From assembly GCA_036172245.1 (NCBI GenBank), contig JAYWIR010000021.1:3224001-3288000 (forward strand): a DNA stretch of 64,000 nucleotides, read 5' to 3'. Made by a program: the position numbers and the translations under genes. The notes under the pieces were generated by a model. It did not search any database, was not told where the DNA came from, and saw only the letters and a program-made list of their open reading frames with translations. The DNA comes from Raillietiella orientalis (Eukaryota). This document shows, piece after piece, positions 17,001 to 59,879 of the stretch; the first letter of the stretch is position 1, and every line of letters begins with the position of its first letter.

Positions 17001-17627
17001 ATGTGGGAGTGTCACGAAACCCGTGGATACGGTTGCCTATATCGGAGCTGTAGAGGACGTGGTCGATCGACTTGTGGCTGGCTGTTAGCCATAGTAGTCC
17101 GAACTCGTCGGACAGCCGCCGATACGCCATTCTGCTTCTGGTGTCCCGGTAATGAATGATTTCGTCCCGGATGTTGAAATTCCTCACGATGATCACGATG
17201 TCCTTTGGTGCGACCTTTTGTCGGAGTGTTCCGTGGAGCGCCTCCGCGCACTGATGCCTTTGGTGGTGTGGTCCGTATACGTTCACCAAGAACAGGTGAA
17301 TATATGCGGACCGGGACATTCGTACACCGACGATTCTTCCCAGCATGGGGCAGAAGGTTTCCAGGATGGTGTGAGCGAGCTCGTTCCTTATGGAGATCGC
17401 CACACCCATGGTGTTTCTCTGTCCCTAGCTGACGAACGGTTTTGCGTTCAGTCGCCGTTCCATGTCGAGGCAGATTTGTTGCCCCATCATGTGGTTTCTT
17501 GCAGGCACACTATATCTCGGTGTGCGATGGTCTGCACAATCCTTTTTCGTTTTGCCTGGTCGGTAAGTCCATTAACATTCCAGGAGGTAATGTTAATCCT
17601 CCTGATGGTGGACAAGGAAGCGGCCAT
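14100..17627 (-). pseudogene. LINE ORF2 (APE endonuclease - reverse transcriptase - zf-RVT)
   Basis: ATG at 17627 overlaps the end of ORF1. Motifs: ITSWNVNGL, DIVCLQET, VNVYGP, IDHV, SDH; WRPISILN, DMEKAFY, VRQGDAL, AYADD, KYLG; PKEEGGTG; CKACGDKDTRLHVLIC. Confidence 0.92.
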
Positions 17628-21620: not shown

Positions 21621-22261
21621 GGCAGGAGTCGGCTCTACTGTTGCAGCATTGGGGGCTCCCCTGCAACGCCCGCCGACACCACTGGACCTGGGGAGCGGTC
21701 GATCCCAACTGTGTAAGGTGTGGGGAACGGGAGTCCCTCCCCCACCTCCTAGTGGATTGTGTTGCCCTTCGGCCCCTTTGGTTCCGCTTTGCTGCTGCCA
21801 TCGGTATCCCCTGCGGCAACCCCAGGGACGCATTAAAAGCCCTCTTCGTTGCCGAAGCCCTTCGGCCAGCGGCCTCGATAGCAGCCTTGTGCTGCCTTCG
21901 CAAGATCGTCACGGCATGGAGCACGGCTACGGGAGGACCACGCGATAAGGATGCCATCCAGGGTGCCGCCCTATTCCTGAGGAGGGCGTCGCGATGGCCC
22001 CACCTGGATCCGCAAATGCAGGAAGAGCTTGCCGGCGTCCTGAGAAGGATGATGCGGCCCCAGCAGCAACAGTGATCCCTTCCCGTACCCTCCGACTCGT
22101 TTTTTTTCTTTTTTGTTTAGTTTTTTGTTTTTTCCCCTTTCCCCCTGCTGCCTTGATGGACCGTACCGGTCTGCGAACCTGTGACCCGGCAGGCTTCGTG
22201 CGTGGCTGCAGCATTGCTGCAGCCACTGACATCTTTTATGTAAAGTTTATTTTTAAATAAA
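21621..22261 (+). mobile_element. 5'-truncated LINE 3' end, opposite orientation
   Basis: CVRCGERESLPHLLVDCVALRPLW (zf-RVT), stop at 22075, T-rich UTR, hairpin at 22202-22226 and AATAAA at about 22256. Confidence 0.82.
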
Positions 22262-33500: not shown

Positions 33501-36500
33501 CGTCCGTTTCACATTGAAAAAAAAAAAAAAAAAACATTGTACATTATGCATGTTTTGCAATGCAGTTTATCATGAAACCTCGATTTTTCAAGCGTCAGAC
33601 ATCATTCTCAAGGAAACTCGTAATCCAAAATGTTTCAGGAGGTTCTTTATTCATTGTCCTTGGACCAACGATTTGAAATAAGAACTATTCCTCTCCTTCC
33701 TCTCAACAATTCCTCCTACACAGATATGTTAGTTCCACCATTTTTCGAGGAAAAGGCTTTGCTCCTTGATACGAGAGGACACATTGACGTCTGGGACATC
33801 GACACTAAAAAACGGGTAATTTTTTTTTTTCCTCTCTCCCCCTTTTCCTGGTCGATAATTGCATACTCTTTAAAATACAGGTATCATCCTATGAGGCAGC
33901 TAATGGAATCACCTCGATGGTAGCTTCACCACTCGTCCCGATGCTCGCTGTCGGCGATGAATTTGGTTTCGTATCGTTCTGCGATATTCAAGGGAGCATA
34001 AGGTCAGTTTCAACCGATGCTGCTCGAGATCTTCTTCGTTACTGAGCACTCGTGCCCACGTAGGAAGATGCATTCCGTCCGCCTGTTCAGCCATGGCATT
34101 GATAAATTATGCTTCGACCAATCCGGTACATTGCTGTGCACAGTCTGCAATAATGAAGACGATATCTATGTACTGTACGGAGCTCCGACTTCAATTCGAC
34201 TGAATGTTCATGGTGAGTATGGCGTCCGGACAGATTCGAATCAAGTTCCCGAGGAAAGGCTACGACTTAGCCCTTCAGCCCGATGAGCAAGGAGGAATTC
34301 ATTTTCACGATTGCAGGTTTCGAAATCGCTGACGGCTCTGGATGCCAGTAGGGAAGAAATCTCTTGTCGACACGCTTTCTAGAGGTTAACACGCTCCCTT
34401 TTCTTCTTCTGCCGGTGACTGGGTTTTGAAGGGTTGGATATTTGTCGTAGTTAGAGTTTCACAATATAGCCGCCACAAGTGACCATTGCGTGGGAACTTC
34501 AGAGCAGGATAACGGTTTCTGCACCTTAGGTTCGTTGGATTGTGTTTGTGTTTTCTGAAAAATAGCGAGCCAGATAAGAGGACGGAGTTTTGCAACAGAC
34601 AAGAGATTCCGGCTGCATTGCGTTGTCGATCTCCTGTGTGGTATCCTTCAAGGGTCACCGTGAAATACTTCTTTGAGTGGTGTTTTCAGAGTTACATGAA
34701 TGATATCGTTACATAATATATTGGATTTTCACTAATGCATGGATTCGGGAAGCAGCACGCACCTTTTGTCGAGAATGTATTTCCTTCCACGGATGCTGAG
34801 GAAATGACCATCCACAGAGATGCATTCTCAACAAAAGAGCTAACGCTGCTGCTTGAAACCCAACGCATCGTTGTCCAGTGGCTAGAAAGCAGCTTCTCAA
34901 GAGTGGAGCAAGTGTACATGAACCGAGCCTGATGGAATGGTTGATTTCGGTTCTCCGTCAGAGAGTTTATCTGTAAAAATGGAGATCGAGATTCGAAAAC
35001 AGCCAGGGTTGGGAAAAGTTCGACCGGGAACTTGAAGGCAACGGATCATGCATTGATGCCCAGCTCACTGTGGAATAGTTTAACGAGTATTTCTGAAGAG
35101 GAATTTTGCCTCAGGGTTCATCAATTGATAGAACCTATTTCTTCTGATAAGTCTGAAATTTTTACTTCCTGAATATACACATTTTGGATGAAGCTTGTCA
35201 CCCACGGTGGCGATGCTGAGCTGTGCTTAGACAATGTTGGTAATGGTTAGGTCTTGTCTGTTCTCTCATGATGCTCTGTTTATAAGCTTGCATCTCTTAC
35301 TGAATATCATGCTTAATCATGCCACTAGCTTCGGACACTCTCAAGAACCTCATGAATCCTTTCTCTTCAAAACAGAACGGTCAGAAACTTTAATTTTGTG
35401 TTTCCTTTTTTTAAAAAAAAAAACAGAACGACGTGCTTCAATGGGTCATTTGAACAGATTTGGAATAAGCAGTTGAGAAATCCGCTGAAAAGAAAGTTTT
35501 ACATTCTTGCGTTGGCTATTGGAATATTTGGTAGGCTGTACATAATAAAGTACTCATCAACAGTTTTAACTATTCTGTTCACTTTTTTTTTTTCCTTTCA
35601 AGACCGAATTATGCACATTGCAAATAAAGAAATTTATTCATTCGGAAGAAAATACGGGAATTTTGGAAGAAAATCTACTCGACGTACACCCAAAACAAGA
35701 AAATGTGAAACATCATCAGTAAACTAACGGAAAAGATTACCGAAAAATCATTTGAAATGATCCGAGAGTAGTTGCTATTAGGAGACAGAAAAGCCTTTCG
35801 ATGTAAGCATAGCAAGCATACTTCAGAAAGAGGGCCAGATTGGAAGGAACATTTTAAAGATATGCAAAAACATAGTGCACTAAGAGCCCAAAAGTAGGGA
35901 CGCTGAAAAAGAGGGAGGCCCTGTGAGCGTAGCTGAAAATTCGTGAGACTGTGAGACCGTTCCAAGTGCAACGTGTTTGAAGATGTGCGCTCTTACAGAT
36001 TCAAATGAACAAAATCGATGAGATCTCGTTTTGTGGAATCCGAAATGTGGATCGGAAACCCAAAGCGATGGCCAGGAACAAAAGGATGCGTCTTCGTTTC
36101 AGATCCTTGTTCCAATGGTTCAATGGACATCCAAAAATCTGGTAATTCTGACCTCTAAATCATAAACGCTTCTGTCTTTCACTTCGTGGGAATCCAAGTC
36201 ACAGTTCTCGAGAATGACTTTTTTTTTTTTTCTTAAAAGAATTTTTGGAAGTACTGGAAAAACGGACTTTCTGAGAGACTCCACATTCAGTGATCACAGA
36301 TATGCTTAAGGGTCTGAAACACGTACCCACCCTTACAAGTTTGTGGGATTGTTTTGATGATAGCCAAAAACTCGTCATAATAAAATATTCGCCGTGGATC
36401 AAAAACGTTTCGATGATGCTCTCTCTCTTCTGTCTCTTACTCTGTGGTAATCCGAAACGGGTGGATCCGATCTGAGGACCACAGTTCTTCCAAGAGTTAT

Positions 36501-39500
36501 TGCTACTCGTAGCTTTCGACCTGTGAAACATGGAATGGTTCTTCTTCCTTCGTGTAGATCAGTGGTTCGAAGACAAAACAGCAATGGAGATGTAGACCAT
36601 TATTTCCGTAAGATGGGAAAGAGGGAAACTGGCAATACGGTGAAGACTTCAAATTCCTCTATTATAGATGGCATTAAAAAAAAAAAAAAAAAGCAGCAGA
36701 AACACCATAGAATTTGAAATGATTCCAAAATGTGGTTTCAAAAGAAAAAGTTTTTTAAGATGCCATTCTCAAGCGTTTCCTTCCGACCACCTCATACGAA
36801 CACAAAATGGATGCAGCAGAAATGGAAATTTCTGCAAGTAAAGCAAAAGATCAAAAAATGATCGTTTATCTTCAAAAAAACTTTCAAACCACGGGACATT
36901 CATCGGAGTCGAATAACTATCAGCAATAATTTTCATTATCCTGGATATCAATTGAAACCTGATTCGGCAACGAAGTTTCCCATGAATATTGAGAATTCTC
37001 GAGAAAAAGGTCTGTTTGTCAAATGACAGGCCCTCGAGCGAGAATCCGACACTTGGGAAATGAAATTTGACCCACACATCGCTCGACTTGAAGTTTACAA
37101 CAAATCAATTATTCGGGCATTGAAACTTTTCATTGGCCTAAAATACAAAGTGTGAAATATGAGATCCCATTAAAGAATGTGATAATCTGATTGTGCCATA
37201 AGGAAATGAACCGGAAGAAAAAGAAAAACCTTTGGAAACTTCTCTTAAAACCCCGTCTGCTTGCTTGTGCTCCCATCACCATCCATCGAACTGACATCAA
37301 AAGCAATAAATAATTATTGAAATCCAGAATTATCTATGATTACTTCCAAAATTAGGAGGAAAATGGCGTCGTGACTGTTGCAGACAAATGCAAACAGTTG
37401 AAGAATGTCGCTTTAAAGTGCGAACTGAACTGAAAAATTTGAAGAAGAAGGAGAAAAAAAAGAAAAATCTCACTCAACTGCGCATTGAAGACTTTCTGTC
37501 TGGGCTGAAAGAGTGACACTGGTAAAATGAGCCTCCAATTTTGCCAAATGTTCCTTCCTTCCGACTTTCAGAACGATTCCTTCACGATCGCTCTTATGAC
37601 TTTCGTAAGTTTCATGAGTGTTTGGTACGAAGACCTGTCGTATGCATGTACCTACCCGTACGCACCTTCAAATCGTATGGGACTGTTGACAAACCGCCTC
37701 GTACATCGCTTTGTGTGTATATGTATTCCAGCTCAGATGAGGAAGGAAGGTTCGGTTCTGGAACTGATCGCCACAGAAAGGAACTTCGATGCATATTTTT
37801 ATCTGCTCGTTCGCAAAAATGCCCAATTCTCCACCGAGGGTGCCAATTTTTTCGTTCAAATATGCGTCAACGAAAGCAGAAAGACGTACCGGGAGCACAG
37901 TCTTGCCGAACCCGTTTTGGGGTTGGCTGCACAGAGGCAGTCATCCTGCTTCCTCTGCTCCAGTACACTAACCAGGAACATCCTGATGTCCCAAATCATA
38001 AGTGATGTATGCGCAAATCTTCTCTGGTAGTTTTTTCTTTTTTTTTTTTACACATTTTATTGAAGAGCGCGGGAAATCACCTGGTAACTCCTCTTGCAAA
38101 TATTCCAACAAGCCACCTCCTTCCCATAGTGGGGTTCATCATGCGCGAAGAAAGATTGTATACGTACGGAAAAGACGGAATAATTCAGTTCTGGAAGATG
38201 GAAAACGTTCGGGGAGATCATCTGAAGCTGACGCCACAGCGAACTATTGCTCTCTGTGACCCTTTTAAACAGGGAGTGGTCGCAGCATACGTACAACGAA
38301 ATGGAAAGTGGATTCTCTCCTTGGGAGGAGACAGCACACTGACGTGCTACACCTTGAGGTAAGATATGCCACTTTCCCCCAGATCGAGTGAAATGCGGTT
38401 TAAACGTGTTTCGATAATCGGTTGTCTGAATAGCCCAGATGACGTGGTACTGAATACTGAAGAAGGAATGGTTCTTTTATCTTCTTGTTTTCAAAAAGAA
38501 GAACTCGAGTGCTTACGGAACACAGAAGATACTTCAGGTACACCGATACGCATCCGATGGCAGAGACGAAATAAAACACCTGCGATGTATCCCACCAGGA
38601 GTCGAGGGTGTTACTACTAAGAACGAATGCTCTTTGCCTTTCAGACTGGAGTAACAGCCAACCAACCTATAAAGAACATTTGAAGAAAGTAAGAGACCTG
38701 GAAGACGAACAAAAATTTATGCCTACGAAACAAATGATGCTCGGGAAGATTTCGGAACTGTCGAAAAAGGTGCGGTAGAATGCGTGGGTGTAATCAAACC
38801 TCAGCGACCATCGCTGAAGCAAACCTCCTTGGGCAGAGCGTTTGGCGTCGCTGCCGACAGCAACGGTCGAGAATTTCGTTCGGTGAATTGAAGACTTGGG
38901 TCAAAGTTGGCCATCCATTCCAACACTTTCCCAAGTCTTCGATTACAGCTTCTTTCCAACCGACAAGCGTTTCGTGAAGATAAAGAGGGAACCACGAACG
39001 AACTAAAATGGTGCGAAACGAAAGATAAGCACGGGGGGGGGGGGGAACTACTGAAAACTTATAAAAACAAACCGGTAATTTTTCGCACAGAACGCTTTCA
39101 AAAAATCTCCCATAAAAATTAAGAATTTCCTTTGGATTCTAATTTTCAAGTTATCTTTTGTTCGATTTTTAGATTGATTTTAAATTGAACGATATGCATT
39201 TTTTTTTTTTGTCAATCTTTATCTGAAATGGAACGCAGTCCTCATAGATGGAGTTGCTTCTATTTCATCATGCTATCCATCAATGATCAAATATCTATAC
39301 GCGATAAATCCATTACTGATCAAAAGTTGCACGTTTATGAATAATTGACAACTAACGAATTCATTAATGATGGAATGCGTCGAAATATGGAATCGCGGGC
39401 TATGTATTAGCGAACGAATTCATTTGCACGGCAAACTAAGGACAGGAAAAATCCTTAATTCATTTATTACTTTTCCCGGAGGTATTAAGAAATTTACAAA

Positions 39501-42500
39501 TTCTCAGAATGCGCGATCCAATGTTTCCGTTAAAGGAAGACAAATACGTAAATAAACTGCTGATTCACGGAAACAAAACAGAAACATTACCACTACTTGC
39601 ACATTCATAATCCATTAGGATAAACATCAAAAACTTCAAACAGCCTTACGTATTATCCTGACGTTCTCATTTGCAAGTTACAATCCCAAATTACAATTTT
39701 CATACTGTTAGGTATTCTCAGATAGTGCCCATTACTACTACGCGAGAATTGTTTTTGTTCCACTGAGAGAAATTGACGAAGAAGTAAATAAACCGCCGTG
39801 CAGGTTGTGGTAGTGCTCCTTATCGGATGATTTCGAATTTTTCAGGCCTCTGAGTTGATGGACGCCAATGAAAGGGTGAGGGCTTCATTCCGATTAGATA
39901 CTGAAGAATTCGAGCTGGACGTAGAAGAGCACGAAAGGCTGTGGGCTGAAGAGATGCGCCAAGCCGACCTGTCGAGAAAGGAAACCGTCTGCCAAAATCT
40001 CAAACTCGCAGAACTTAAAGCTAAGTTCAAAAAGGTGTTTTGGGATAACATGGAGGTACAAGGAAGAGCTGTGAAAGTACGGTTTTACTTTTCCCACGTT
40101 TCTGTTGGAGTGGTAATCCCCTTTAAAAAGGCACTGAAAAAAAATATCACGGTGTGGAACTACCCAATGAAATCTCGAAGCGTCGATGAAATGAACTGTC
40201 TCGAAACTGTCGAGGGATTCAGGTTGCACGAAATCCAAGCTCAGGCGAACACAAAGTCCACAAAATATTGGCATAGGTAACGAACGCACAACGTTCAGTG
40301 TACGAATGCGATTCGAATTGCCGGTGGAAAAAAAAAAAAAAAAAAAAAAAAAATATGCACGTTCGTCTTTGCCCTCCGGCAAAAAAGGGCGATTTCAGGC
40401 CTGGAGACGGCGAAGACACGGCAAGAGCAGAACCTCTGGCTCACCTGGGGAGCATCAGACACCGCTTCGAAGTGGATTCGACTTTGCTGTACTCCCAGTT
40501 TGAGCTTTTTGATGAAGATCAACGGTGCATGCAGATTAAGCTTTTGGAGGTATGCCTCGCAGATACAGGACCCGCGATCGGAGTGTGATGTAAAGGTTCA
40601 TGGAGTGCTTTGACTGAGGTCACCTGAGACTGACCAGGAAATCCAAATGCCCTTGAATGTCACAAACTCTAAACGAATCCATGCGTGTATCGTGTCGACG
40701 CCCGAGTCTGCTTTAACGCCGAAAATCCGGAACTCACAGATCAGAATTGTTTCCGTGTTTTCAAAGAATACCGATCTGTACTTCTTCTTCTTCTCCTTCT
40801 TGTGTTTTGAGACAGCCGTTTTGATTTTGCATATGCTTCTGATTTGAATTTTCACGAGGATTTTCGATGATTCCCTATAACCGAGAAAGGTTTTTTAAAA
40901 TGCCCATCTTTCACCTTTGCATCAACAAACAGCAGCACAGATCGGTCGTGAAGACTTCGGGAGTCTGTGACCTCGAGAACACACGGATGCTTCCGCCTAT
41001 GACCATTATCGTGAACTTTCTAGTTGCTAAAGGCATGTTTTAAAACCGTTTCGCAAACCACACATAGGGGATATACCTGACTGGACAAACTCTTTCCTAA
41101 ACGATATCCAAGATTAGCCAGCTAATTACGATATAAAATGGGTATTCCCTTATTTCATATTTACTTGCTTCTTGTGAAGACACAATGCCTTTCTTTTCTT
41201 TTCTTTTTTTTTTTTTACTAGTTATAAGAGAAAGTTCGGATATTTCTTACCGTATCCACAAACACACACACACAAAAACTGCACGCAGTCTTTTCCAAAA
41301 TTTCATTGAAAACCTAAACTAACGTTTGCACTTCGTAGAACTTATGCAATCAAAGGAACACATAGTGCATGATGTACACCTTATCGACTTTACAAACGAT
41401 GATTTATACACATCAGAGGCATTATTTTTTGTAACTTTAATGGTATTAATGAATGGCATTGCAAGTATACCTTTTGGCTCTATCCATAAGTATTGAACAC
41501 TGTTGCAGACGGGAATTCGGAACATAATGCTTTACTTCAATAAGAAATTTGAGGAAGCGTTCGAACAAAAGGAGTCTGTAATGGAATTAATAGCAAGGAA
41601 AAAAAAAAGAATAGCTCACTTGATGGAAGTTTTGGATTTGCCCGCTACCGACACCTCGGTATATTCTCTGCATATTGAAGAAGAACCCGAAGAGCTTTTC
41701 GAAACGAGCGATGAAGTATACCGATCTAAAAGAACGTGACCATATTTCAAAACAAACAAATCTTTTTAGGTTCTTGTCTATAAATTGGAGTCGCGCTTCA
41801 GAGCTGCAGAGAAAGACACGGAGGAAATCAAATTCGGAGTGCAAGGAAGGAGTAAAGCAGAGACAGACTTCCGCGAGAGACTACTTATGAGGATGATGGG
41901 AGGAGTCTTAGAAACAAGTCCAGAAGATATTCTATTGAAGCAATTACCCCTTCCGAATTTCATGGTTATTCCTGCAATGAGTTAAAAACTGGACTGTAAT
42001 TGTAATCGCCTCAGATAATGAAGGATTCCCAAGAATGGACTGACGAAGAAAAACAGCATGCAGTCGTATACGAAACGTCCGTACAGCAGTTGGTACAGCA
42101 AAAACAGACAGTAAGAATGAAACTGGAGGCAGAGCTGGTCGATTTGCAAAAGGAAGTGAGCGTAAGTAATCTAAGCTCAAATTATGACACTGTGACTCAG
42201 TCCCGGTGGATGCAGCGAGACAGAGTTTTTGTTACACTTAAGATAGCGACACGATTCCACTTGGGAATGTCTCGAACATTCGAATGTAACAGAGTATAAA
42301 ACTGCTTCCGAGCGTCAGGACCACCTTGTTTTTCATGTGTTTCCAACACACGAAAAACAATTTAGCAAGATTTGACTTGCTAAATTCGTAATGACGCATG
42401 GCTTCCTCCATATGTGGCAATACTGATTGCTCAGACTTAAACGTACCGGTCGGCTGCCAGTTTTCTGAATTAGTTGAGGCATGTTAATCAGCTTTCCAAG

Positions 42501-45286
42501 CATAATAAACAAAGATGAAACAAGTAACTCATTATTCATCTATGATGACCCGCAATATATAGCCCTTGCGAAAAAAACCTCTATGGATTTAAACAGCACA
42601 GGAAAAAAAACACGAGCTCTCCATATAAGTCTTTCCTTTTAGTTTCTCGTTTTAATCACAGGGAAATGAATTCCCAATAAAGTACGTGTACTTCTGGATT
42701 TCCCCATGAAAGTGTTTTTTTTTTTTTTTTCATACTTTTGTTCAGCAATTCTGTGCCAGAGGAAAAACATCCTGTAATCAGTCCACTATAACTTTGAGTT
42801 TAAACATGGAAACCAACTCTGTTTCTGTTACTTTCAAATTTTTTAATGCCCTACATCACCATCAGAGCACATGCCTTTTTAGCATACGCTTTTTTTTTTT
42901 TTTTTACTGTGTATAACTCGAATATGGAACAAAATAGAACAAGAGAAATTGATGCACATTCTCGGAATCTGAGCATTTGTGGTTCAAACCGATTGCAATT
43001 GCTTTGGAGAAAATAATGAGCACAGTTAGAAAAATCAGTCATTCGTACAGCTGAGTAATGAGCGCTGGAATCTTGTTCGTGTTCTCGCTTTGTGGTAAGA
43101 TTTTGGATTGAAAATCATTATTAAGTAATAAATCTAACAAAAATTTCTAAAGTTGAAGCGTCCATCGTATTTACTGAAAACGTATCGTAACCGGAAGAGT
43201 TTGTTTAAAAGTGATACTAATTTATCCTATATTGCTACACTAAAAAGTACTTCCTCTGAATATTCATCAAAGCCAACCATCAAAATGTATCTCTGTTCCA
43301 ACGAAAACAAAAATTGCGTTACGTTTGAATTTGTGACTTTTGGCATCCGTGCCATGAACACAGCAAACCGTTGCAAACCACTGCTGCGTCCACTGAGGTT
43401 ACCCCAAAGTAGTAAAAGACCAAAGAAACATCTCGATTTCGAAGCTCCTCCCAACTGCAAATTACTGTTATTACGATTATTCAGGCATCCCCTGAAGCTC
43501 GAAGGCGTATGAAACACCTTTATTATGACTCGTTAAAAACTTCTCCTACTGAATAATGCGAATTCAGGAAATGATCGACCAATTTGATGAGAACATCGAA
43601 AGACTGTACCAAAGCAAACTACAGAGCGAATACGCTGTGAAACAGGATGAAATGCTCATATTACTAATTTCCAAGAGAGACATTAAAATCAAAAGATTAC
43701 ATGAAGAACTGCAGAGCATACAGTGAGTCTGCAGAAGGCAATTTTTTCCCTTTTCATTTGCCAATGAATCAGGGAAGAAACGAAAACGTTGGCGGAGAGG
43801 AAAAAATTGGGGGCCCGGCTCCGTGAGGAGCGACTAGCTAACTTGAAACTATGCTCAGATGCATACGAGACTCACCTTTCAGAAGACAAGCATATGGATC
43901 GCAACTTTCGTCGAGAATTCGGAAAAGCTGGCCACCACGTTGACGAACTTTACCGTCTGTACAAGTAAGAAATTCGCATCCTAGGGCACCAAACACTGTC
44001 CTCAGGAAGAGGCCTGCAGCTCTGCCTCCTACGAGTTACGATTTTTCCAGCAAATTAGCTGTCAATGAATGCACAGATGATAAGAACAAAATTTTGGAAT
44101 ACGAGCGCAACATGCTGGTTCGTATGACATTCTATACATGAATATAGTAACACTTTTGTTTACTTAGGAACTGGACAATCCTCAGAACCGTCCACAAGGC
44201 ATGGACTTGGAATTGTGGATGGAATTTTGCACAGCTCGCAGGTTAAAAATAGAAAAAGAATTCAATGTAAGCACTCAAGACCCAAAACGCACATTTGTTT
44301 TTTTGTTTTGGGTTGAATAGATGAAAAAGCTACTGAATGAATGTCGAAATGCTCAGAATGAAGAACAAACATTCATATCGAAATACGAGATACTGGAAAG
44401 AAAACTTGACAATTTGAATGAACAATCACAGAATCTTCACAACTGCTGGCTGAAGTACGTGTTACATGCTTACTGGTTAAATGACTGTGAATTGGCAGCT
44501 GTATCCATGATCTACCTATTCAGCTAATTTTGAAATGTGAACAAGTAGAAGTGGCAACAAAAGATCACACTTATTTATTTGATGACTGCATCTTAATAGA
44601 TAAGACAATAGTAGCTGACCTAAACAATACCATCATTAATTTAGGAAGGCAAAAACTCAGGATCATGAATAAATGCAGGGAATTCAGAAAAGGCATACTC
44701 CAGTTGGAATGGAATCACAAAAGTTACCTCATGCAAATCCATGATCTGTTATATAAACTTCGTGAAATTGAGCTATATCGAGTGAGTAAACCAAAAAAAC
44801 CACGCTTACTTTAATAAGAAAATATTAGGTAACTAAAGAGGTGCAAGATTATTTGCAATCTGATGCAGCAACCTATACAAAAAAGCTGGAAGCTTTCCAA
44901 AATGCACATGACTTTGAAGAACAGTTTCATCTGCAACTGAGGGAAAAAACGCAATTCAAAGTAAGACAATACTTTCAAATAATATACTTGATCCTATGTA
45001 GTTTCAACAATTGGAAAACAAAGTCAGCACATGTAGGCACTCCATTCACATACTAGATGCAAAAATTGCAAAGATTCAGGCAGAAATACTGGAGAAAAAA
45101 CACCTTGTAGAGATGATGTGCACAGTTGACAGAACAAAAGTGAAGCAAAATCGACTCCAAATTATCAGAAAACATAAAAAACTGAAAGATGAAGTGGCTA
45201 TACAAAAAAGTAACCTGCGCATGTTAGAGCTGGAACTGGAACGACTGAATTTACGCACATATCCTACTTTAGAAGCACCTCACTGA
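27549..45286 (+). CDS. CFAP43: Cilia- and flagella-associated protein 43 (WDR96), multi-exon; first exon not resolved
   Basis: Phase-compatible exons include 27549-27759 (WCAGKHVKSVTFVGHETIALLIGKVIYFIDV), 30751-31072 (KPNIFIHRYPSMEMLSVLKG), 31137- (SGIPDFLLTVWNW), then HCW, AVGDEFGFV, GKWILSLGGDSTL and FWDNMEVQGRAVK exons, 44524- (QVEV..DCILIDKTIVADLNNTI..ILQLEWNHK) and a terminal LERLNLRTYPTL. N-terminal WD40 plus C-terminal coiled coil matches CFAP43. Confidence 0.92.
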
Positions 45287-45288
45287 TC

Positions 45289-45294
45289 AATAAA
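45289..45294 (+). promoter_or_regulatory. Candidate polyadenylation signal of CFAP43
   Basis: AATAAA 2 nt after the TGA stop. Confidence 0.55.
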
Positions 45295-45300
45295 AAATTT

Positions 45301-46827
45301 TCAACTTTTGGTAGCACTATTATTGAGGAATGGATTACAAACTCGCTTCATATGGAAACATTTCAATAAATCCTCAAATCCCAGAGGCTTTCTGACAAAA
45401 TAATTTGTGATGCAATTGCGTTTCTTACTTGGAGGTCCAGCAACCACAGAATCATTGACAGGCCTGAAATGCAGTATGTAACATAAGAAAGCAAGGAACA
45501 AAAGCATACCAAGAAACCTTAGCAGCATGACTTTCAAGAAAATCTTCAGCAGTTGACCATGTAAATCTGACTACTTGAGGAAAACCAAAGACGAAATCCA
45601 CACTGCTGGTAAGAAACCGCTTAGTCACAGGATCTGAAGAATAAATGGAAGATGCTGCCTTGTGGCAGTTACTTACCACTGGGGTATCCAGAACCAAACG
45701 GATGGTGAGCAATGCTATTTTCACAATACTGCCAGTTTTGCAAACAGCGATCTCGAATTACTTTGGCACATATGCTGGCTGCACTGACAATTGGATACAG
45801 AGCATCTGCCTTTTGGCTGACGACAACATCAACTGAAGGAAAAAGTTTCCGGAGTTTCTCCTATAGTCTCAATTCTTACAGAACACATGTATCATTTTTG
45901 GCTTACTTGATATTTCTCTGCGATGCCTACTGTATCTACAAATACTTTTTTCACTTGAACCTTGTTGTCAAGCGCCCACTGTATAAGAGCAATAGCTGAA
46001 TTGTGTGAAATTTCATTGAGATTACATTTACATCTAAGCAGGAGAAAACTGGTGTTGGATTCTTCTATTAATGGAATTACCTGTTACTCATGGCTTTGGA
46101 TATAACATTAGGACTAATGATTTCAACTCTCCATGCAAAGACACCAGAATTGTCATTAATTTTTTGAAATAAAGTATTTCTTTGATCTTCTGTTAATTGT
46201 TTTGAATCATCACATCCCATTATCTTTAACTTCTCTTCGGCACTTACAGGGCAAAAGCATACACTATAGACCATTGGACCTAAATAAACACAGTTAACAT
46301 AAACACAGATGATTTGAAAGTTCCGCTCAAAAAAATCTAATTTCTGTCTATAACCCTACAGATATTGATGTAGAAAATCTCAGGCCAATATGCAACATAC
46401 ACTTGCGAATTACGTTTGCAAAATTCAGATATTAAATGTTTGCAGCATTTAATATCTGAATTTCCAATTCACGCTGCGACCGTTAACTCGATGAAAACAT
46501 GACTATCAATGGGCTGAGTATGATTTTTAAATTCTACTCCTGTCCATTAAATGTGAATATATACAACGAATTATATTGTTTGCTGTGTAACATTTAAAGA
46601 AAAAGGAACAACAAACGGACAATCATGTAGGTCACTAAGTAAAGATAAAACAATACTGCTACTCGAAACATACCTAACACGGGGCCTCTTCCAGCCTCAT
46701 CAATGCCTAATACACATGCATTTGAGAAACATGAATCCGGTATGGCTGAATTGACAAACTTATTTTCGAAATTTCGTTTCTGATATGCAAACAACTCCCT
46801 ATCCACCCAATCCATAGTACCTAACAT
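45301..46827 (-). CDS. RNASEH2A: Ribonuclease H2 catalytic subunit A, 6 exons
   Basis: [91 protein letters not shown] introns keep the frame. Confidence 0.97.
46421..46463. repeat. 18-bp perfect inverted repeat (7-nt loop) in RNASEH2A intron 1
   Basis: aaattcagatattaaatg ... catttaatatctgaattt. Confidence 0.9.
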
Positions 46828-47820: not shown

Positions 47821-48025
47821 ACATTACCGTCCCTCTAGCGAGGTGAGCATTTTTTTTTTTTATCAGGACAGCCAAGAGAGATATTTTCCAGTCCAATGTT
47901 GTCGGCATAAATAAGGAATTAGGGTACACGAAAAGGTTAAGTGTTGCTTTTCATTCGGATTTGTCGGAACATTCATTATAAAAATAGTAAATTTAGGTTT
48001 CTAACGTGCAGAACACTTGGTTTAA

Positions 48026-48950
48026 TCACGTACAGAAACAACCACATTTCATCCCCACCTGCCACTCGGGATCCCATGCGGCCACATGGGGTTTGGGCAA
48101 AAACAGAACGAAAATAAAGAAACAAACGTTTATTGAGGGATCGGGGCATCGTTCATCCCCTGGAGGATGCTGGCAAGTTGGCATTTGCCTTTTCCCACGT
48201 GCGGTCCATCTCGCGGCGATCCTCAAGAAGAGTTCCGACCCATGGATGGCACCTCCTTCGTGTTGGTCCCTTCTAGTGACGTTCCATGCCACCACTGTCC
48301 CTCGCATGTGGCAAAGAGTTGCTACGCACGCAGCTCTTGGCAGTGCTTCACGCACGAAGAGGAGCTTGGAAAGGTCTCTGGGATGGCTCCCTGAGATCCG
48401 AAGGGCCGTTGCAAAACGTTTGCAGAGGGGTCGGAGGGCAGCACAGTCAAGGAGCAGGTGCGGAAGGGTGTCCCCCTTCCCCGCACCTGCCTCACGCCGC
48501 ACCAACACTCCCCAGAGTCCATTGTCGGAGGCGCGCTTTGCATGGGGTTCCCCCGATGCAGCAGCCGCAAAGCAGCAACGCCGGTTGCTGACACTTCAGG
48601 CAAAGGGTATGGTTGTCTTGCAGCACTGGAGGCCACATCAGGGATTCTCGGGAAATGCCCAGCAGCTTGCCCCGGCGGAGAAGTGCTTTGGGTGGGAAGT
48701 CGGGGTCGCAGCGTCCTCCAGTTTCCGAGTTGTCCCCACTCCCAGAAGTTTCATTCATACTGCAACGCAACACGGACCTCCCACCTCGCTGAAAGGTCGC
48801 TGTCCTCTTCTTTCTTTAGGGAGGGCAGCACTTGGACAAGGTGGGTAGACGGAGTCCACTGCATCTTGCGCGAGTTGGCCACGATCTCCTGCAAAGACTT
48901 ACGAGCGTTTCCGTCTGGTCACAGACAGCCGTCTTCCGCGTTGTTTCCGT
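48026..48950 (-). mobile_element. 5'-truncated LINE 3' end, same family as 21621-22261
   Basis: DTLPHLLLDCAALRPLCKRFATALRISGSHPRDLSKLLFVREAL aligns with ESLPHLLVDCVALRPLWFRFAAAIGIPCGNPRDALKALFVAEAL. Confidence 0.85.
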
Positions 48951-50150
48951 TATTGTTGTTGAGAAATTGACTTCAAAGATACTTTTGGACTTAAAAGAAA
49001 ACTGCATTGCTTTGAGCATTGGCTTTCAAGCAATTATGCCGCTTCAACAGACATTTTAGTACAATAAAATAATTAAAAAATTGACAATATGTCATTACTG
49101 GAGTCTAGTCATCATAATCCCATTCAAAATAAAAGGTTTCCTAGGTGCTTGTTATCAAGTATAGCATTACTATTTTGGCAGTGGACAGGATTACATGAAT
49201 GTAATTTCCCAGGAAATTTTTCTGGAATGTTGAAAATATTTGTCTTTGTTAAGAGTTCCAATCTGACCAATGAGACCCTCAAACAGCCTGTCTTATTTTA
49301 AGAGTTATATAATTGCTATGTAAGTTCAACGTGTTTTTGGAGACCAAATAGCAGAAAGAGTGGTACAAACGTTAATTCTTTCTCTTTTTTCTTTCCTTTC
49401 CTTGTTTCTTCTTTCTAATCTTCTAAAATTTGACTGTTTCATACTGGAGTGGCTGAGGATTTCCATCAAGATGGACATGTTAAGATTTTTGATGATGCTA
49501 GCATTTTTGCAATGTAGTTTTAGAAGACCTATTAAAAGTTTGAAGATGGGTCGAAAATATGTAAAGATAAAATGTTTTGATTTACTACACGATCTTAGGA
49601 TCTTAGTGATCTTATTCGAAAACTTAAATAGAAACTATGTTTTCTTCAGAATTTCATCACAGTTTTCAGTAACAATGTTCGTAAAAGTGTTTTTTTTTTT
49701 TTATAACATACATTTCTGATGTCTAAATTAAAGAATTTGTGTCTCGAAATCTCAACACTGAATATCAACACTTTCTTTGCATTCGAAGCAACATGATGTA
49801 CCTGTCCCATATATTTAAGAACCTTAAGAATAAAAGTACGTTGAGTAAAAAAATATGCCAACGCCGTCATAAATCATTAGTTTATGGAAGTATACGGTGT
49901 AACCATGCATCTTCGGCAATTCGCAAGTGGTCGTCCCATGCTTTCTTGGTTCTCAGTTAGCGTATTATCAATTACAGTGGAACTTTCAAAATTGGGCATT
50001 TTACATTTTTAAACAAAATGATGGCCATTAAAGAACAATATAGGTGATTCCTTGAAAAATGATATCGTCTCATGCACACTTACCATATGCGTATATCTAT
50101 TTACAATACGCAGTAAGCAAATTGGAATCCATACAGATTTCTCTTAGCTA

Positions 50151-51172
50151 ATGCAAAAAGTGATGGATATCGTTGACAACATAGATTATGAAGACCTAGA
50201 GCAAGAAATTGTTGTATTGAATATTGCTATAAAGGGGCTCATACAGGTAGTTTAAGATTTACAAGAGGTGCATGTTGTATGTCGCTATGTTTCAGGATAT
50301 AAGAACATGCAATTCATCCGCTGCGGAAATATATGAATTGAATGCAAAAGTGAAGCGAAAAATGAATTTAATGGAATATAACGTGAAGAAATTGGAAAGA
50401 TTGGCATTTGAAGCCAAAAAAGAAGTTTCTAAACAAATGAATGAACTTGTACATCTATATCAAATGGAAATGAATCAGTAATGTTATATATTTTTTATTA
50501 CTGAATTCGTTGGGAATAATTTGAACTTAATGCTGTAAACCGTCTTAAAGTAAGTCATTCAAAAATTTGAATAACACGAGATATATACTTGCTTTTGCTA
50601 CTTAGATGCGCAGTGAATAGCATGTGTATCTTTATTGTTGTTGTAAATGTGCAAATTATTTCTTTTCAAGGAATCAGGTCTCATTAAGATGTGCGAATCT
50701 AACTAGTCAGGCTGCAGTCAATGAAAAAAATAAACTTGAATTATTCTCCAGTTCCCCTGTAAACGAATTACGTAGCAGGTACTAATGCATATCTCATGAA
50801 GTAAGTAATGGTGTTGATTATTATCTTTAGGAAATCTAAAGAAAATCTAATACATACATCCTCACAAATTACCAAGAACCTGACATCTATCAGTAGAGCA
50901 ATGGCTGAACAGGTAGAAAGAAGTCATAATACTCTAAGCACTTTAGGTAAAATTTCATAGTTAACAAGCTGTTTAATTTCTGTTCAGTACAATCTTCCCA
51001 GAGTATTCTCAATACTGAAAATGACTTGAAAAATGTGAGTAGTGCAGTGACACAAGGACAAACCCTTCTAACAAAATATAAAAGACGTCAGTTGACAGAC
51101 AAGTTGCTAATAGTTGTTGCATTTACGTTCTTTGTTCTTTGTGTCATGTATGTTGTTTCAAAGCGTCTATAA
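50151..51172 (+). CDS. BNIP1: Vesicle transport SNARE SEC20 (BNIP1), 5 coding exons
   Basis: Exons 50151-50246, 50296-50477, 50671-50778, 50831-50946 and 50988-51172 are phase-compatible. KENLIHTSSQITKNLTSISRAMAEQV...LLTKYKRRQLTDKLL, a transmembrane stretch and KRL* match Sec20. Confidence 0.94.
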
Positions 51173-54100
51173 GCAAAAAGATGCTTTTAATGGTTTTATC
51201 ATTCCAAGTAAGAAAGTAAAATTCTGTATTATTTTTAATTTTCAAGAGTTTATTCATAAGTTAATTCTTGAATTCTGCTTGAATCAAATTTGCCCAAATT
51301 TGAGATGGATTTTAAGAAATGCTTGAAAAGAATGTTTTTTGACCTGTGAAAGACTTATACATTTAATTCAGGAAATCCGGCTGTTAGTTTTGATGTAAGT
51401 ATATAATATAAATATAAATCAAATTTTCGAATTAAAAGTTAATTAAATTCAATTAATCGTCTTGATACAGCAATAAGTAACAAGCATGTTTGCAGAAATG
51501 AAATAGCTAGTTGGATATTTAGTCAAATGAAAATTTTGACTAGTCAAGTTCAGATTTATGGTTTTCAGTTCCCTAAAACAGGTATCCAATTAATATGCAA
51601 TTCAGGACATTCATATTCTATGGCTTCTGGAAAGATTTCAAATTTAAATTTCTCGTTTACTTGTGTTTATTTCAATATGAGCCTAATTTCAATGAAACAG
51701 TGACAGTTAATTCATATGCATTCAAATTTTGTCCCGTATTTCTTTTTAACTGCATCATGAGTACTTTCAAAAACTTATTATGAAAATTCCAGATTATATC
51801 TGTTCTTTCAAATGAGAGAGCCAAAGATCATAAGTTAATTCATTCAAAATTACTGAATTCATTGAGAGAAGCATGGTTTGAGGACTTTGGTTTTCATAAA
51901 GCTTTTGATTTTATTTTCTTAATAGTTTATTGAACTTTCACATAATCTTATGAAGTAACATTGAAAATCAACATGCAATCTAAACATTTAGATTAATTTT
52001 TTTTCAAATACATCATGCAAAACACTGTGTAATCCGTTTGAGGAAAATTGTAAAGATTATTTCATCTTAAGCTTCCACAATGCTTCATGACAGCTTACAA
52101 TAAAGCCATCATAATAAACAACTGATTTGAGTTTGTATTGGGTCTTTTTTTATTATGTGCTCGTTATCATATAGCATTCGCCATATACTAAGTATGCAAC
52201 TACAACATACTTTTAAATTTCAAAAATGCGTACGTTAAAAGAAATATTGCAATAGACTGTCGTTCTTGTAGCATGGGTGGAAGGAATCTGTCATCTGCAG
52301 ATGTAAATAAGTCTTTTCTGAATAAAGGCTGTGAGATGTACCAATGAAATCCCTTGTTTTTATTAAGTCAGTTTCATGCTTAGAAAATATTTTACATTTT
52401 TCATTCATTTTTGGGAGATTCCATGATTGTTGTCAAGTTCATGCAAACTGTTTCAAAATGCATTAGATATGAAGAGAGTACTGTAAAAATATTCAGAAAT
52501 ACTTCTACAAAGAATCGGAAGAGTGGATTTGCTGTCACAAGTGGGATTTTGAAACCTTGAAAATAGGATATCCAATTCATTTGTTTTGAGTTCGATAAGT
52601 TGGTCAACTTATCAAACTTGAAGCAGCTAAAGTAAACAGTAATGAAACATATGCTTTGTTGTCTTTAATTTCCTTTGTAGAAAGATCCTAACTGTAAACC
52701 ATTCATAGAATTTAATTTGCTGCATTATTATGTTGATATGGAACGCTGAATGATAATTTATGGTATTGACTTCATGATTACCTTATAACAATGCTGGTTA
52801 AGTATGGAAGATTTGATTCAGTGGGAAACAAGTGAACATCCTGGAAAAGGGATGGCAACAGACAAATTTCTGAAGAAATGTGGCATTGAAGTATTCAGAA
52901 CTGTGGTTTCTGAAGTTTCTGGCTAAAACTAATGAACCAAACGAATGTTTTAAGGTATTTTATCAACACAAGATGCAAACATGCCTAAGCAAGCTTCCTT
53001 TCATCTATTAATATTCCCGCACTATGCCTTGGGTAGTGCAGGAATACTTGAGTGGTATGTTTTGATGGACTATTGTCTACAAGAGCTAGTGTGATGAAGA
53101 TGGTTCTGTGATGGAAAATTCTCCTCTTTTTTCGAAGAATTGGTTTTCAGCAGTTTTCTGTTCAAACTTTGCTTTGGGTTTGTTGTACAGTGAAATTTAA
53201 TGCTTGTTTTTTCATTTGCATTGTGATTAACATGCAATTCATTGAAATAACAATTGGAGTGTACAATGAAAGGTAAATTTGCTCAGGAGAGAAAAATTTT
53301 ACACTTCCAAAGATAGTTGGTGAAATTTCAATAGTTATTTACTATTCTGATTCACTGGCATATTTTCGTCCATTTGGAGATAATACATTTTGTAAATCGA
53401 GAGAAATGTGAAAATTCCAGTGGTCTGACTAGAAACCAGAATGTGCAGGCAGAATCAAGTGTTCAGAACACGTTAGTGTAAGTATTTTTTGAAGTAATCA
53501 AATGTATTTATGAACGTTTCTAAATTACTTCAGTGATGAATACATATAAATGGATTTCCTAAAATTCATTGGGTAGAATTAAATGCACTTACAGCCATTT
53601 GCTTACACCTGCTCCAAGATCAAGATCTTTAGCTTTCTTTAGGATGCATGGTAGTCGTAGCGAATGCTCCTTTTTTTTGCTATCTTGGTTCTCGAACAGA
53701 AAAATTAGCATTCTCGTTCAGAATTCAATTAGGTTTTGATTGGTGTCTGAAGCAACAGTAATGATCTCAAAGGACCATCTGTTCTTTTTATACTAAAGCA
53801 ATAATTTGCATTACTTATAGAAAGACTATAGTCATCAGGCTAACTCTGTCAACATCCGAGCTTGGAGGTTGTGTAATCATGTTTGACCACGTGGAATGTT
53901 CGTTTAGGATCGGTGTAACGAGCTGCACAGATTTCAAGATACTTCCAGTGTTTCAGATTGTATCGTGTGCAGAACTGCGGATTATATTCTTTATCGTATA
54001 CAGATCATAACTTAGTATGGCCCTTTTTCTCTGTGAAAAATAGTCCGAACCCACAACTGTTTCTTCATGATCATCGACTAACCATAAGGAAAAATTTTCT

Positions 54101-56191: not shown

Positions 56192-57696
56192 ATGGATTTA
56201 TGTTCAAGTCAGGAAAGCCAGGAGATCCTGCTATTATCTCCAACTGCGGAGAGTTTGTTGAAAGAATTCTGTGGATCGGAAAATGACTATGATTCAATGT
56301 ATTACCTAAATCAGCTGAAGTAAGTTTATACAAATTAGGTTTATTTATTTCTGTGATTGCCCATCTGCCTCTGCCTTTTTTCTACTTGGATGTTAGAGCA
56401 GATAGCAGTTGAAATGTATCTTATATTTGTGACTAGATTTTCAGGTGATGGTGATAACAAAAAAACGAAAGTAGAACAAAAATTATGCAAGGTGAGCTGA
56501 TGGGTAGATTGTGACTCTTTTTGGACCATTACTGTTTTTTTTCTAGACTGAAGGTAGCTCCAGCTGCTATGTGCCGGTCACTAAAGTGCATCAATCCCAA
56601 TTGGATGATGAAGTGCCACTCTTCCGTGATTGGCTTGGTGCATATGGTTTTAGAATATCTTTTGCCTCACGAAAACACAGTTCCTGGATTGTAAGTATAG
56701 TGATTCAGAGAGGGATTTAATTGGGATATTTTAAATTGATAAAGCAACTCTTGAGTAGAACTTAGAAAGTAAGTAATGGAGAATGTTTATGTCATTGAGG
56801 CACTACCATCAATTTTCAGTATTCACAAAGATTGAATAAAATATATACACAACTGAACACTCTGGTGCCAATCAATATTCATGTCAGTGGTGCTGCTTTG
56901 ATAGATGGACCTCTTTTCATACATACAGTTCCATATTTTACTAATCCTGATTTGGTGCAGACACCTGTCACTTGTTGCGCTAATCACTGTAGGGAAGATG
57001 ATGTGCAAAATAGAGGTATGCCTGGACCATTTATTAGCACAATTCATCACACTGGTTTGTTGCAGATGATCCAGCATGCAGCTGGATGCACTTTGTGAGA
57101 GTGTGTGATTTACGGGCAGAATATCTGAAACGTGGCAGCCGTTTATCTGTTCGTACACCTTTGATCCTTGGCCACTTGGAAGCATGCACAGTATTATCTT
57201 TGAGATTTATGTGTCAACACAGCTGCATGGGTAGCATTGCCAGACAGCCTGTATTAATCATCTTGCATTTGGAAGATCAACAGTAGGACAGATCATCTGT
57301 TTTTCCTTTAATTCATTAATTACAGTCATAATGTACTGGGAAAAGCAGTTATGAATGTTCGTGTGTGTGCATGTCCTGGTAGGGATTTAAAATTGGATAT
57401 GAAGAAAATGGACAGCCCGAAGAAATCATTGTTAACATCTAAATCACGACCTTCAAAGAGGAAGAAAGATGCAGCTGATGTGTTCACCATCACAGTTAGT
57501 TAGAGAATGGCATAGAAAGACACTGATTGTTTTGATTCAGGTGATTGGTAGTCGAATGCTGGAACGGGTGAAAAACTATCTTCTGTTTTTGGAGCTAGTT
57601 GAAAGAACACGTCGTTTTTCCATTGAGAAAATTTCTGAAACGTTGATACGACAAACAAAAGAAGCTGTTAACAAGATGATTAGCATAGGTGGCTGA
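56192..57696 (+). CDS. p53: p53-family transcription factor (DNA-binding + oligomerisation domain, no evident SAM), 7 coding exons
   Basis: Exons 56192-56319, 56437-56491, 56547-56690, 56820-57015, 57066-57282, 57326-57494 and 57541-57696 splice in frame. Motifs: GAYGFRISF, YSQRLNKIY, CANH, HFVRV, FMCQHSCMG, VRVCACPGRD, VFTITVIG..LEL. The first two exons are less certain. Confidence 0.93.
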
Positions 57697-57738
57697 TTTT
57701 AAGAATATTTTCCTTGAGGCAAATATTCTTAAAATGCC
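57691..57738 (+). repeat. Hairpin overlapping the p53 stop codon
   Basis: ggc[tg]attttaagaatattttcct-tg-aggcaaatattcttaaaatgcc: 19-bp stem with one mismatch plus a 3-bp extension past a 2-nt bulge. Confidence 0.85.
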
Positions 57739-58615
57739 AAATTGATGGAAAATTAATAATTTGCCTATATTGTCAGTCAGCTAGGATCAAAATGCCACAT
57801 TCACTGATTGCTCACCTCCTAATTGAATCAGTTTGATCAATACAAAACTTGCTTCAGCTTCTGGGTTGAGCTTGCTGTTCTGTAGAACAGCAAGCCCATG
57901 TCAGTGGACATACATGTCCCACATAAATCTTTCACTTGTCTGTTCCAAAATTGACAGGGTGTTTGGTGTTCATGGTGATTTTGCATGTATTTGCTTTGAT
58001 GATTATAAGATGAACATTCTTAGGCAGTTTTATATTTGCTATCTTTATGTATACATAAATCATATTTATTGCCTAGCTGACTCCCTGTCATGAAAAGTGT
58101 AAATAGTTCCAGTATACAGATAAATTTTGCTTGTATAGGAACTATTGTTCATAATAATTCTACAAAAGATTTTGTAATTGCACAAGTAATGCAGTCTGGT
58201 TTCAAAAAAATTGAGCAATTCATTGAAACATGAAACTGTTGTGCAGTTTAGTTCTGTGGATCATATTATGCAGCAGCATTATTGTGTTATCAATTTGTAT
58301 TCAAATACCAGTTCAGTCTTTTCAGATTTCAGCTAAATGTTTCCCAATTTTGATTAAGCATTGCATTTCAATTTTGATTTTCTAGCTGTTTCTAATTAAG
58401 TACAGCTTCTATATGTAATTGTATATAGAACTGTGTTTACTAATTTAGTACTAAATACTAACTTCTGATTGCATGGCTGTAACAAAATACTTATACATAT
58501 ATAATTGTAGCGCGAACGTTTTTCAGCTGCAAACTATGTAATTGTATAATTTGTTTTTTTTTGTAATTACTTAATCTAAACTTTACAAGTTAGATAGTGT
58601 TTGATTCAAAATAAA

Positions 58616-59879
58616 ATGTTGAAAATTCTTTTCTTATTATTTCCTGTTTTATCCAAAGCAAGTTATGGGGAAATGTATAATGAACTGTATAATGAATTGC
58701 AATTGCATTCAGGAAATTTTATTCCCTTTCATGTGAAGGAAGTCTCAATTTTTTCATTTGGAAAGAGTATGTCATTGGAATCAGTTTCAGGAAACAAAAA
58801 TTAATCATTAATAACAGTAGTAGCAGTATTTGTGCAGCACATTCAGTGGAAATCTCCAAAGTTTCCCAGCATTGCTGTGTAAAATGAGAAATAACTTTGT
58901 GACTCCTTGCCACTGATAGATGGGTAGCAACGAACTAACTGTGTCCTTGAAGCAAGTTTTCCTTTTGAATGAGTGGCGAGTAACTGAGAGCACCTTGGAA
59001 CATAAAGTAAAACTAAGGAGATGGTGCTGTTGTTGCAGAGTATTCTTTTCGTCTCAAAGAGGTGCATGTTTTATGAAATCATCACATTGGTTTCATAAAG
59101 TTAAAATAGTAAAAGCATGCAGGAATGTCGAAAAATGCTTAATGAAGTAAAGGTTTTGTTCTCCTGCAAAACAAAAAATTCGATGCAGCTTCTGAAGCAC
59201 CTTAGTAGGGTTATTATGACCTGCACTTTGTATTGGCCATGCTGCCTTTTACCAGTGCAGTGCGAGTTTAGCAAACGGTTGCACATGATGACATGAATTA
59301 TTATCTGAGAATTTCCTGATGATGACGGTAGGTCATGCAAGTTCAACGCATGTGCATGTAACTTTTGTCTGGCAAACACCGCGGTGCACTTCACATTAGA
59401 TTGATTGAAGGTGTGTATGTTCACGTTTGGTCAATCTGCCATGCACTTTGCAGCAGTGGTCGTTTTGCATTTCCATCAGAGTCGGCTGTTTCATTTCCCA
59501 GCCGATGCACTTTGCCAAGTCGTTGTTTGGCTCCGTTTCCTTCCGTGCTGTTAAGGAGAGGGTGTGCAGTGCTGAACCCGGCGGGAGTGCATGGACATCC
59601 AACTTCACACAGATTGCGAAGACGGAAAAGGCTCGAGGAATGGAACCAAATTTGAAGGACACGAGCGTGTTCACATCTGAATTCGGAAAGAACGACAAAA
59701 TTGGATGCTGCATTCCCGAAATCGTGACACAACGCGCGATGAAACTTACCGATCGTTTGCAGTGGGATTTTCAGAACGTCGAGTACGGTTCTCGGTGGGT
59801 CATTCGTCCGGTGTGCGTTTCCCATGGGGATATATGCACTAATAAAAAGAAGAAAGAATCAAGTGGAAACGATCCCTGA
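58616..59879 (+). CDS. Possible uncharacterised gene with signal-peptide-like start (exon structure not resolved)
   Basis: MLKILFLLFPVLSKAS start with a GTATGT donor at about 58767 and a 150-codon open frame at 59427-59879; no recognisable domain. Confidence 0.2.

Follow-up and report, generated by a model that had tools for sequence, protein, structure and literature searches.

A divergent predicted p53-family gene of Raillietiella orientalis with altered residues at the four structural hotspot positions of human p53

The window analysed here is a stretch of 64,000 nucleotides from the Raillietiella orientalis assembly, and towards its end lies a predicted gene of the p53 family. Splice signals and homology allowed seven exons to be assembled, with 354 codons open across them and all six introns of the GT-AG type (Table 1). 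The exon matches to PF00870 exceed chance: exon 4 (44.6 bits) and exon 5 (49.7 bits) pass the curated cut-off of 27, and exon 6 (25.8 bits) falls just below it. The other three of the six segments searched, exon 3 alone among them, gave no Pfam match. For exon 2, one of three acceptor models tested keeps the frame, and exon 7 stays open solely with the donor at 57495, one of four donor/acceptor pairs. Intron phases at the junctions of the DNA-binding domain (DBD) are 0, 1, 2 and 0; the codons split near human G187 and at S261 have intron phases that correspond with those of human p53. No stops, frameshifts or lost splice sites of the kind expected in a pseudogene were found in the gene model.

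Table 1. Predicted exons and other features of the window, with positions counted from its first nucleotide and residues numbered as in human p53
Feature	Position	Strand	Evidence and content
Exon 1	56192..56319	+	Predicted ATG start, GTAAGT donor; acidic N-terminus with two Ser-Gln motifs
Exon 2	56437..56491	+	
Exon 3	56547..56690	+	DBD start, shortened L1 loop, K120-equivalent (56673-56675)
Exon 4	56820..57015	+	PF00870 E 2e-11; 7pc6 alignment E 0.76; His158 (56922-56924), Thr171, Cys175, zinc ligands C176 and H179
Position 175, Cys (TGT)	56973-56975	+	
Exon 5	57066..57282	+	PF00870 E 5.5e-13; human p53 chains E 4e-8; C238, His240, S241, C242, Ser245, R248, Gln249, His256
Position 245, Ser (AGC)	57233-57235	+	
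Position 249, Gln (CAG)	57245-57247	+	
Exon 6	57326..57494	+	PF00870 E 1.1e-5; R273, C277, R280, Leu282, Met286 (57399-57401); basic NLS-like stretch, then strand 1 of oligomerisation-domain-like region
Position 282, Leu (TTA)	57387-57389	+	
Exon 7	57541..57696	+	Remaining oligomerisation-domain-like region and stop; weak profile match
CpG-depleted gene body	56192..58700		TpG/CpA excess; AATAAA at 58610
Imperfect palindrome, 40 bases	57696-57735		From stop codon onward; 90% self-match on opposite strand
CFAP43 (motile cilium), multi-exon	about 33600-45300	+	Six PF25828 matches
RNase HII-family exons and weak translin-family match	46080-46827; 50251-50478	-; +	
Non-LTR retrotransposon	15417-17424	-	Reverse transcriptase and endonuclease frames
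Similar-looking decayed retrotransposon pieces	near 20000-22100 and 48000-48800		By eye

The layout would thus be a DNA-binding domain followed by a probable oligomerisation domain, with no SAM domain in the predicted model. Pfam gave no oligomerisation-domain match in the gene-model segments; a profile of our own built from 30 relatives scored 4.1 bits, on the strand only, a score equalled by one of 500 shuffles. The intron inside the oligomerisation-domain-like region lies at the same position as in a second p53 gene of this genome, described below. No SAM match was found in the gene-model segments, and the predicted model stops 51 residues into exon 7. The palindrome that starts at the stop codon could form a hairpin in the 3' UTR.

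The gene body is strongly depleted of CpG, with 23 observed against 76.3 expected (observed/expected, o/e, 0.30; TpG 1.40, CpA 1.45). It occupies the three lowest of the 124 tiles of the window, and o/e in the flanks is 0.90 and 1.01. Elsewhere in the window, positions 50000-53500 are also CpG-poor (o/e 0.46), while the CFAP43 gene, unlike the p53 gene, is not depleted overall (0.95). Two loci of the DNA-methylase family were found in the genome, L019/L021 (G000:C11) and L020/L022 (G000:C5), the first of which we take, from a motif, to be DNMT1-like. Honeybee genes low in CpG are methylated in the germline and expressed broadly (PMC2975444, excerpt). By analogy the p53 gene would resemble methylated, expressed genes; the depletion itself is a trace of past methylation, not of present expression.

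The residue register rests on two independent alignments and on ungapped HMMER matches with solved chains of the p53 family. The positions equivalent to human 175, 245, 249 and 282 are occupied by Cys, Ser, Gln and Leu. Ser245, Arg248 and Gln249 were placed by alignment with human p53 chains (E 4e-8), Leu282 by alignment to a solved p53-family chain, and Cys175 by a chain match of E 0.76 that is weak but locally ungapped. Position 175 is bracketed by Val173, Cys176 and His179, positions 245 and 249 by Cys242 and Arg248, and position 282 is preceded by Arg280-Asp281. A shifted alignment at 175 was considered and rejected: the Cys-x-x-His spacing and Val173 fit the second Cys alone. The first-pass annotation had picked out three motifs carrying Cys175, Ser245/Gln249 and Leu282; all are present as it wrote them, and the two alignments concur on their positions. 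Its range of 56820..57400 does enclose these motifs, but it covers three exons rather than one frame and leaves the K120 codon outside.

All four zinc ligands (C176, H179, C238 and C242) are kept. The DNA-contact residues of human p53 are listed as K120, S241, R248, R273, A276, C277 and R280 (PMC8268744, excerpt), and the last six are all retained. K120 was assigned by back-counting from Y126 and is less certain because the L1 loop is shortened: the stretch from F109 to Y126 has 14 residues here and 17 in the second p53 gene; 8 of 129 relatives among the best 150 of 401 profile matches have at most 14. The retention of ligands and contacts claimed earlier therefore holds by alignment, and for K120 by back-counting.

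The paralogue count suggested at first pass gave two p53 loci in the genome. The second lies on another contig (G000:C25, L006 3438-4742, minus strand), has 6 exons and 357 residues, and is 37% identical to this copy over 177 DBD columns. Four intron positions and the phases at these junctions are common to both genes. The paralogue carries Arg175, Gly245, Gln249, Lys282 and Glu286, and shares His240 with this copy. Codon 249 is CAG in both genes, so that Gln249 most simply predates the duplication. At position 175 the paralogue has CGT and this gene TGT, and CpG decay offers a route to the R175C change; CpG o/e in the coding sequence of the paralogue is 0.37. In a FastTree tree of 136 domains and 182 columns the two genes are sisters with support 0.98, a placement to which long-branch attraction may contribute, on terminal branches of 1.06 (this copy) and 0.89 (paralogue) against a tree median of 0.34. 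They are best read as sisters from an old duplication within a lineage that evolves fast. Searches of the genome with Pfam, DNA and two proteins found no third p53 locus, though very divergent copies may escape them; three further weak matches had E values of 0.48-0.60. No second DNA copy of the present locus was found in the genome.

Between the paralogues, pN (0.456) is lower than pS (0.685) over 177 codons, with synonymous sites near saturation and 8 of 23 fourfold sites identical. A hand-corrected ratio comes to about 0.4, a value that is unreliable at saturation. The survival of the frame, the splice sites, the zinc ligands and the contact residues through an old duplication is a stronger argument for selection than pN/pS.

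We next consider how unusual these residues are within the family. A profile search gave 401 matches, of which the best 150 were used, with P0001 (a 14-fold repeat that lacks the C-terminal half) dropped and 15 proteins from a separate alignment search left out of the counts; this set represents the conserved top of the family. Among these best 150 of 401, position 175 is Arg in 146 of 149 proteins and Cys in a single one, from a beetle. Gly occupies position 245 in 143 of 148 and Ser does so in five, one of them ambiguous in alignment; the named relatives with Ser are from a stick insect, a bed bug, a rotifer and a nematode. At position 249, 129 of 148 have Arg, 17 Lys and 2 Ala, and Gln does not occur. 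Position 282 varies far more, with Arg in 63 of 138, Lys in 42, Met in 12, Ile in 9, Leu in 2 and other residues in 10. A second alignment agrees with this survey. Among these fairly distant relatives, the possibility raised earlier that the substitutions are common in related taxa applies to 282 as a variable position, but the changes at 175, 245 and 249 are rare. No change at the four sites was seen in 57 of 138 relatives, one in 63, two in 18 and more in none (best 150 of 401). Within this sample, the conserved top of the family, the four-site combination is thus a genuine outlier. The hotspot residues are nevertheless not defining for the family, since at least one is changed in 81 of the same 138.

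The divergence extends beyond the hotspots. This copy keeps 23 of the 30 columns conserved at 90%, and the paralogue 27; over the same columns 133 full-length relatives, a set biased to conserved proteins, have a median of 0.97 and a minimum of 0.80. Further changes against conserved columns are R158H, G226E, T256H, R267K and E286M, and 10 of 38 well-conserved columns are changed overall. The chance that positions 175, 245 and 249 would all fall among the 10 changed of 38 is p 0.014, and that 175 and 245 would fall among the 7 changed of 30 is p 0.048; both values are after-the-fact, and leaving the unchangeable zinc and contact residues out of the columns drawn from would raise them. No close orthologue was found, the best DBD identity being 41% among the matches listed, and a word-indexed search with exon 5 and the long frame of the paralogue returned no homologue at E 0.01. 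Our literature search met no description of an invertebrate p53 with these four residues, a weak negative given that subscription papers lay mostly outside it. The survey also gave some observations on other proteins: Asp replaces the zinc ligand C242 in 14 of 149 relatives (P0007, P0009, P0010 and 11 others; best 150 of 401), in library protein P0002 a SAM-like tail follows a tandem pair of p53 DNA-binding domains, and the 14-fold partial-domain repeat of P0001 is probably an annotation artefact.

The effect of these residues in human p53 can be taken from a saturation screen in human cells, scored as RFS from -1 (synonymous) to +1 (nonsense) (PMC11735402, excerpt). There, R175C (-0.76) and R282L (-0.58) are near wild type; negative scores are also given for G226E (-1.00), N247A (-1.06) and E171T (-0.67). 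By contrast, G245S (+0.91), R249Q (+1.00), R158H (+0.89), E286M (+0.98), S240H (+0.92), T256H (+0.83) and R267K (+0.75) are inactivating. In all, 7 of the 12 chosen residues of this copy that were looked up inactivate human p53. For the paralogue the figure is five of six (V173L, R213H, M246P, T256R and R267H, with R282K tolerated), indicating that human-inactivating residues are routine in both genes and the norm at 37% identity. The same screen reports no tolerated substitution at G245 or R249. According to a second source, small residues at 175 leave residual or wild-type-like activity, and G245S preserves the fold, with partial binding at 20 C and a defect at the dimer interface (PMC8268744, excerpt). 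The first-pass annotation had described a protein hit at all four structural hotspots. All four are indeed changed, but two of the changes are tolerated in human p53, position 282 is variable, and Gln249 predates the duplication. Ser245 alone is both private to this copy and damaging in human p53, and the headline reduces to this private damaging residue, an ancestral damaging Gln249 and two mild residues.

If the protein folds, one would look for local compensation, and one candidate was found. In human p53, R282 bonds with T118, T125, Y126, S127 and E286 (PMC13685541; PMC8196604, excerpts). Here Leu282 is accompanied by Met286 and by an L1 loop three residues shorter than that of the paralogue. 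Among the 132 relatives with R280 (within the best 150 of 401), a non-acidic 286 occurs in 4 of 28 with a non-basic 282 and in none of 104 with a basic 282 (Fisher p 0.0017); the counts are not phylogenetically independent and rest on four sequences, two of which look related, so that the test is optimistic. The pattern suggests that Leu282-Met286, a pair overlooked at first pass, may be a local compensation. We infer that 282 would have lost its charge first, a tolerated step, and that 286 was then freed, giving a hydrophobic pair one helix turn apart.

The surroundings of position 175 still include Met237 and an acid near 184, and the residue aligned with 191 is a Trp; as a speculation, Trp191 might fill the R175 pocket. 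For Ser245 and Gln249 the search for a compensating partner was negative. Both paralogues lack an acidic residue at 171, the partner of 249, but R249-E171 covariation does not hold across the family: of 129 proteins with R249, 54 have no acid at 171 (best 150 of 401). Alignment indicates that the human dimer-interface Glu180 is also absent from both. Another candidate, the use of extra cysteines as a new metal site, was discarded: the domain has 10 Cys, and 19 of 130 relatives have at least 10 (best 150 of 401).

The stabilised human p53 carries M133L/V203A/N239Y/N268D (PMC8268744, excerpt); this copy shares Ala203, but has Ile133, Gln239 and Ala268. Ala203 occurs in 94 of 149 relatives, Phe236 in 140 of 149 and Ile253 in 49 of 148 (best 150 of 401), and all three are present here. 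Known p53 suppressors are not enriched in this copy, which has Leu168 rather than Arg168, the suppressor of R249S. The proposal that the gene offers natural suppressor substitutions gains no support from this comparison, as the stabilising residues present (Ala203, Phe236) are common family states.

Taken together, the sequence evidence makes it probable that the gene encodes a functional, fast-evolving p53/p63/p73-family transcription factor whose deviations are epistatically compensated. Selection would hold the residues that touch zinc and DNA, whereas the arginine-centred support networks would drift and be replaced locally. R249 would have been lost first, in the common ancestor of both genes. 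After the duplication, the R282-E286 charge pair may have become a Leu-Met pair beside the shortened L1, and the mild R175C, one CpG transition from CGT, may have been acquired together with Ser245. The protein is predicted most likely still to bind p53-type elements, perhaps more weakly, at ectotherm temperature. The compensated fold proposed at first pass is thus the best reading and has one concrete partner change in Leu282/Met286, but no partner for Ser245 or Gln249. Counting against it are the 23 of 30 near-invariant columns kept, below all 133 full-length relatives of the biased set, and the 7 of 12 looked-up residues that inactivate human p53.

A possible but unlikely alternative is a neo- or subfunctionalised paralogue that folds and binds DNA with altered partners, affinity or specificity, the ancestral role remaining with the C25 gene; the shift would act via L3 (His240, Ser245, Ile246, Ala247, Gln249), the short L1 and a rebuilt helix H2. 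The changes do cluster beside the DNA-binding surface, both genes were retained until synonymous saturation, and R175, G245 and E286 persist in the paralogue, as does a basic residue at 282. Near-invariant columns are eroded at 7 of 30 here against 3 of 30 in the paralogue, but this difference does not reach significance (Fisher p 0.30 and 0.40) and is gone at looser columns, 47 of 75 in each gene. The terminal branches are similar, and the base- and backbone-contact residues are all kept, K120 by back-counting. The second p53 gene needed for the neofunctionalised paralogue suggested at first pass thus exists, but nothing positive speaks for the new function.

Relaxed selection on a redundant copy, destabilised and slowly decaying yet without a stop or frameshift, is improbable. 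It would fit the largest near-invariant loss among the proteins compared (best 150 of 401) and the many human-inactivating residues, and its role could fall to the second p53 gene. Against it, 354 codons, 12 splice sites, four zinc ligands and six contacts have survived an old duplication, the partner changes at 282 and 286 match a family pattern, and the branch is hardly longer than that of the paralogue. It is hardly credible that errors in the bases, a wrongly placed splice site or an alignment out of register produced the four residues. A single transition would turn three of the codons into one for Arg or Gly, but all four lie within exons, the Gln249 codon is identical in the paralogue on another contig, Leu282 requires two changes and comes with Met286, the two alignments concur, and the genome search turned up no second DNA copy of the locus.

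The functional, compensated factor that we favour can also be put in a bolder and improbable form. In this form a well-folded consensus binder would replace all three buried-arginine networks by compact local solutions: Leu282/Met286 with the short L1, the Trp near 191 in the R175 pocket, and an L3 with His240, Ile246 and Ala247 that tolerates Ser245 and Gln249. Some of these modules would then rescue G245S, R249S or E286 mutants once grafted into human p53.

The gene is a new, unusually divergent member of the known p53 family. Its zinc ligands and contact residues correspond with those of the human DBD, but the human cancer alleles R175H, R249S and R282W differ from the Cys, Gln and Leu found here, and G245S alone is a hotspot allele proper. 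Compensated pathogenic deviations are residues that cause disease in humans but are the wild-type state of other species, and both paralogues resemble them in having human-inactivating residues as native states. Such cases usually involve close orthologues and one compensator, whereas at about 35-40% identity single compensators are hard to assign because the background differs at most sites.

Ecdysozoan p53 genes diverge rapidly, with frequent lineage-specific duplications (PMC4803236, excerpt), and hexapod and crustacean p53-family proteins have a DBD plus OD-type layout without SAM (PMC5543598, excerpt). The p53/p63/p73 proteins of Penaeus japonicus (XP_042870755.1) and Bacillus rossius (XP_063232048.1) likewise have PF00870 and no SAM, as here. 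The shrimp protein of Penaeus japonicus, at 41% DBD identity, is the closest named p53 among the matches listed. A non-basic 282 (Ile, Met) is common in the hexapod and crustacean proteins, a likeness to this copy, but they keep R175, mostly G245, R/K249, R158 and E286, all of which are changed here.

Ordinary divergence explains most of the four-site coincidence, and understanding of the family is unchanged. Should the domain fold and bind DNA, it would provide a test of how far the hotspots depend on sequence background, and it would point to an R282L/E286M double mutant and to L3 swaps in human p53. A working natural protein with both 245 and 249 changed would be informative because both positions are reported as intolerant in human cells.

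Some further observations were made in the genome. With regard to MDM2, two SWIB matches above the cut-off resemble, by eye, chromatin-remodelling proteins. Two partial mitochondrial contigs, L012 and L013 (G000:C282 and C285), are near-identical, about 9.1-9.2 kb long and in opposite orientation. Their tRNA cluster is rearranged, with G-E-N-F-A-S before nad3 and R-K after it. The cox1 frame is open under the invertebrate code and has a Leu(UAA)-like tRNA directly 3', seen by eye, arms included, and without an ARAGORN call; the cox1-Leu(UAA) tRNA order marks Pancrustacea. With a shrimp protein as the closest named p53 among the matches listed, the host is probably a pancrustacean, provided that these contigs are its own. 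About 500 apparently non-coding bases separate the Leu tRNA from cox2, and one strand of the contigs has only 6.7% G. The assembly contains 54 matches to COX1, many of them probably nuclear copies.
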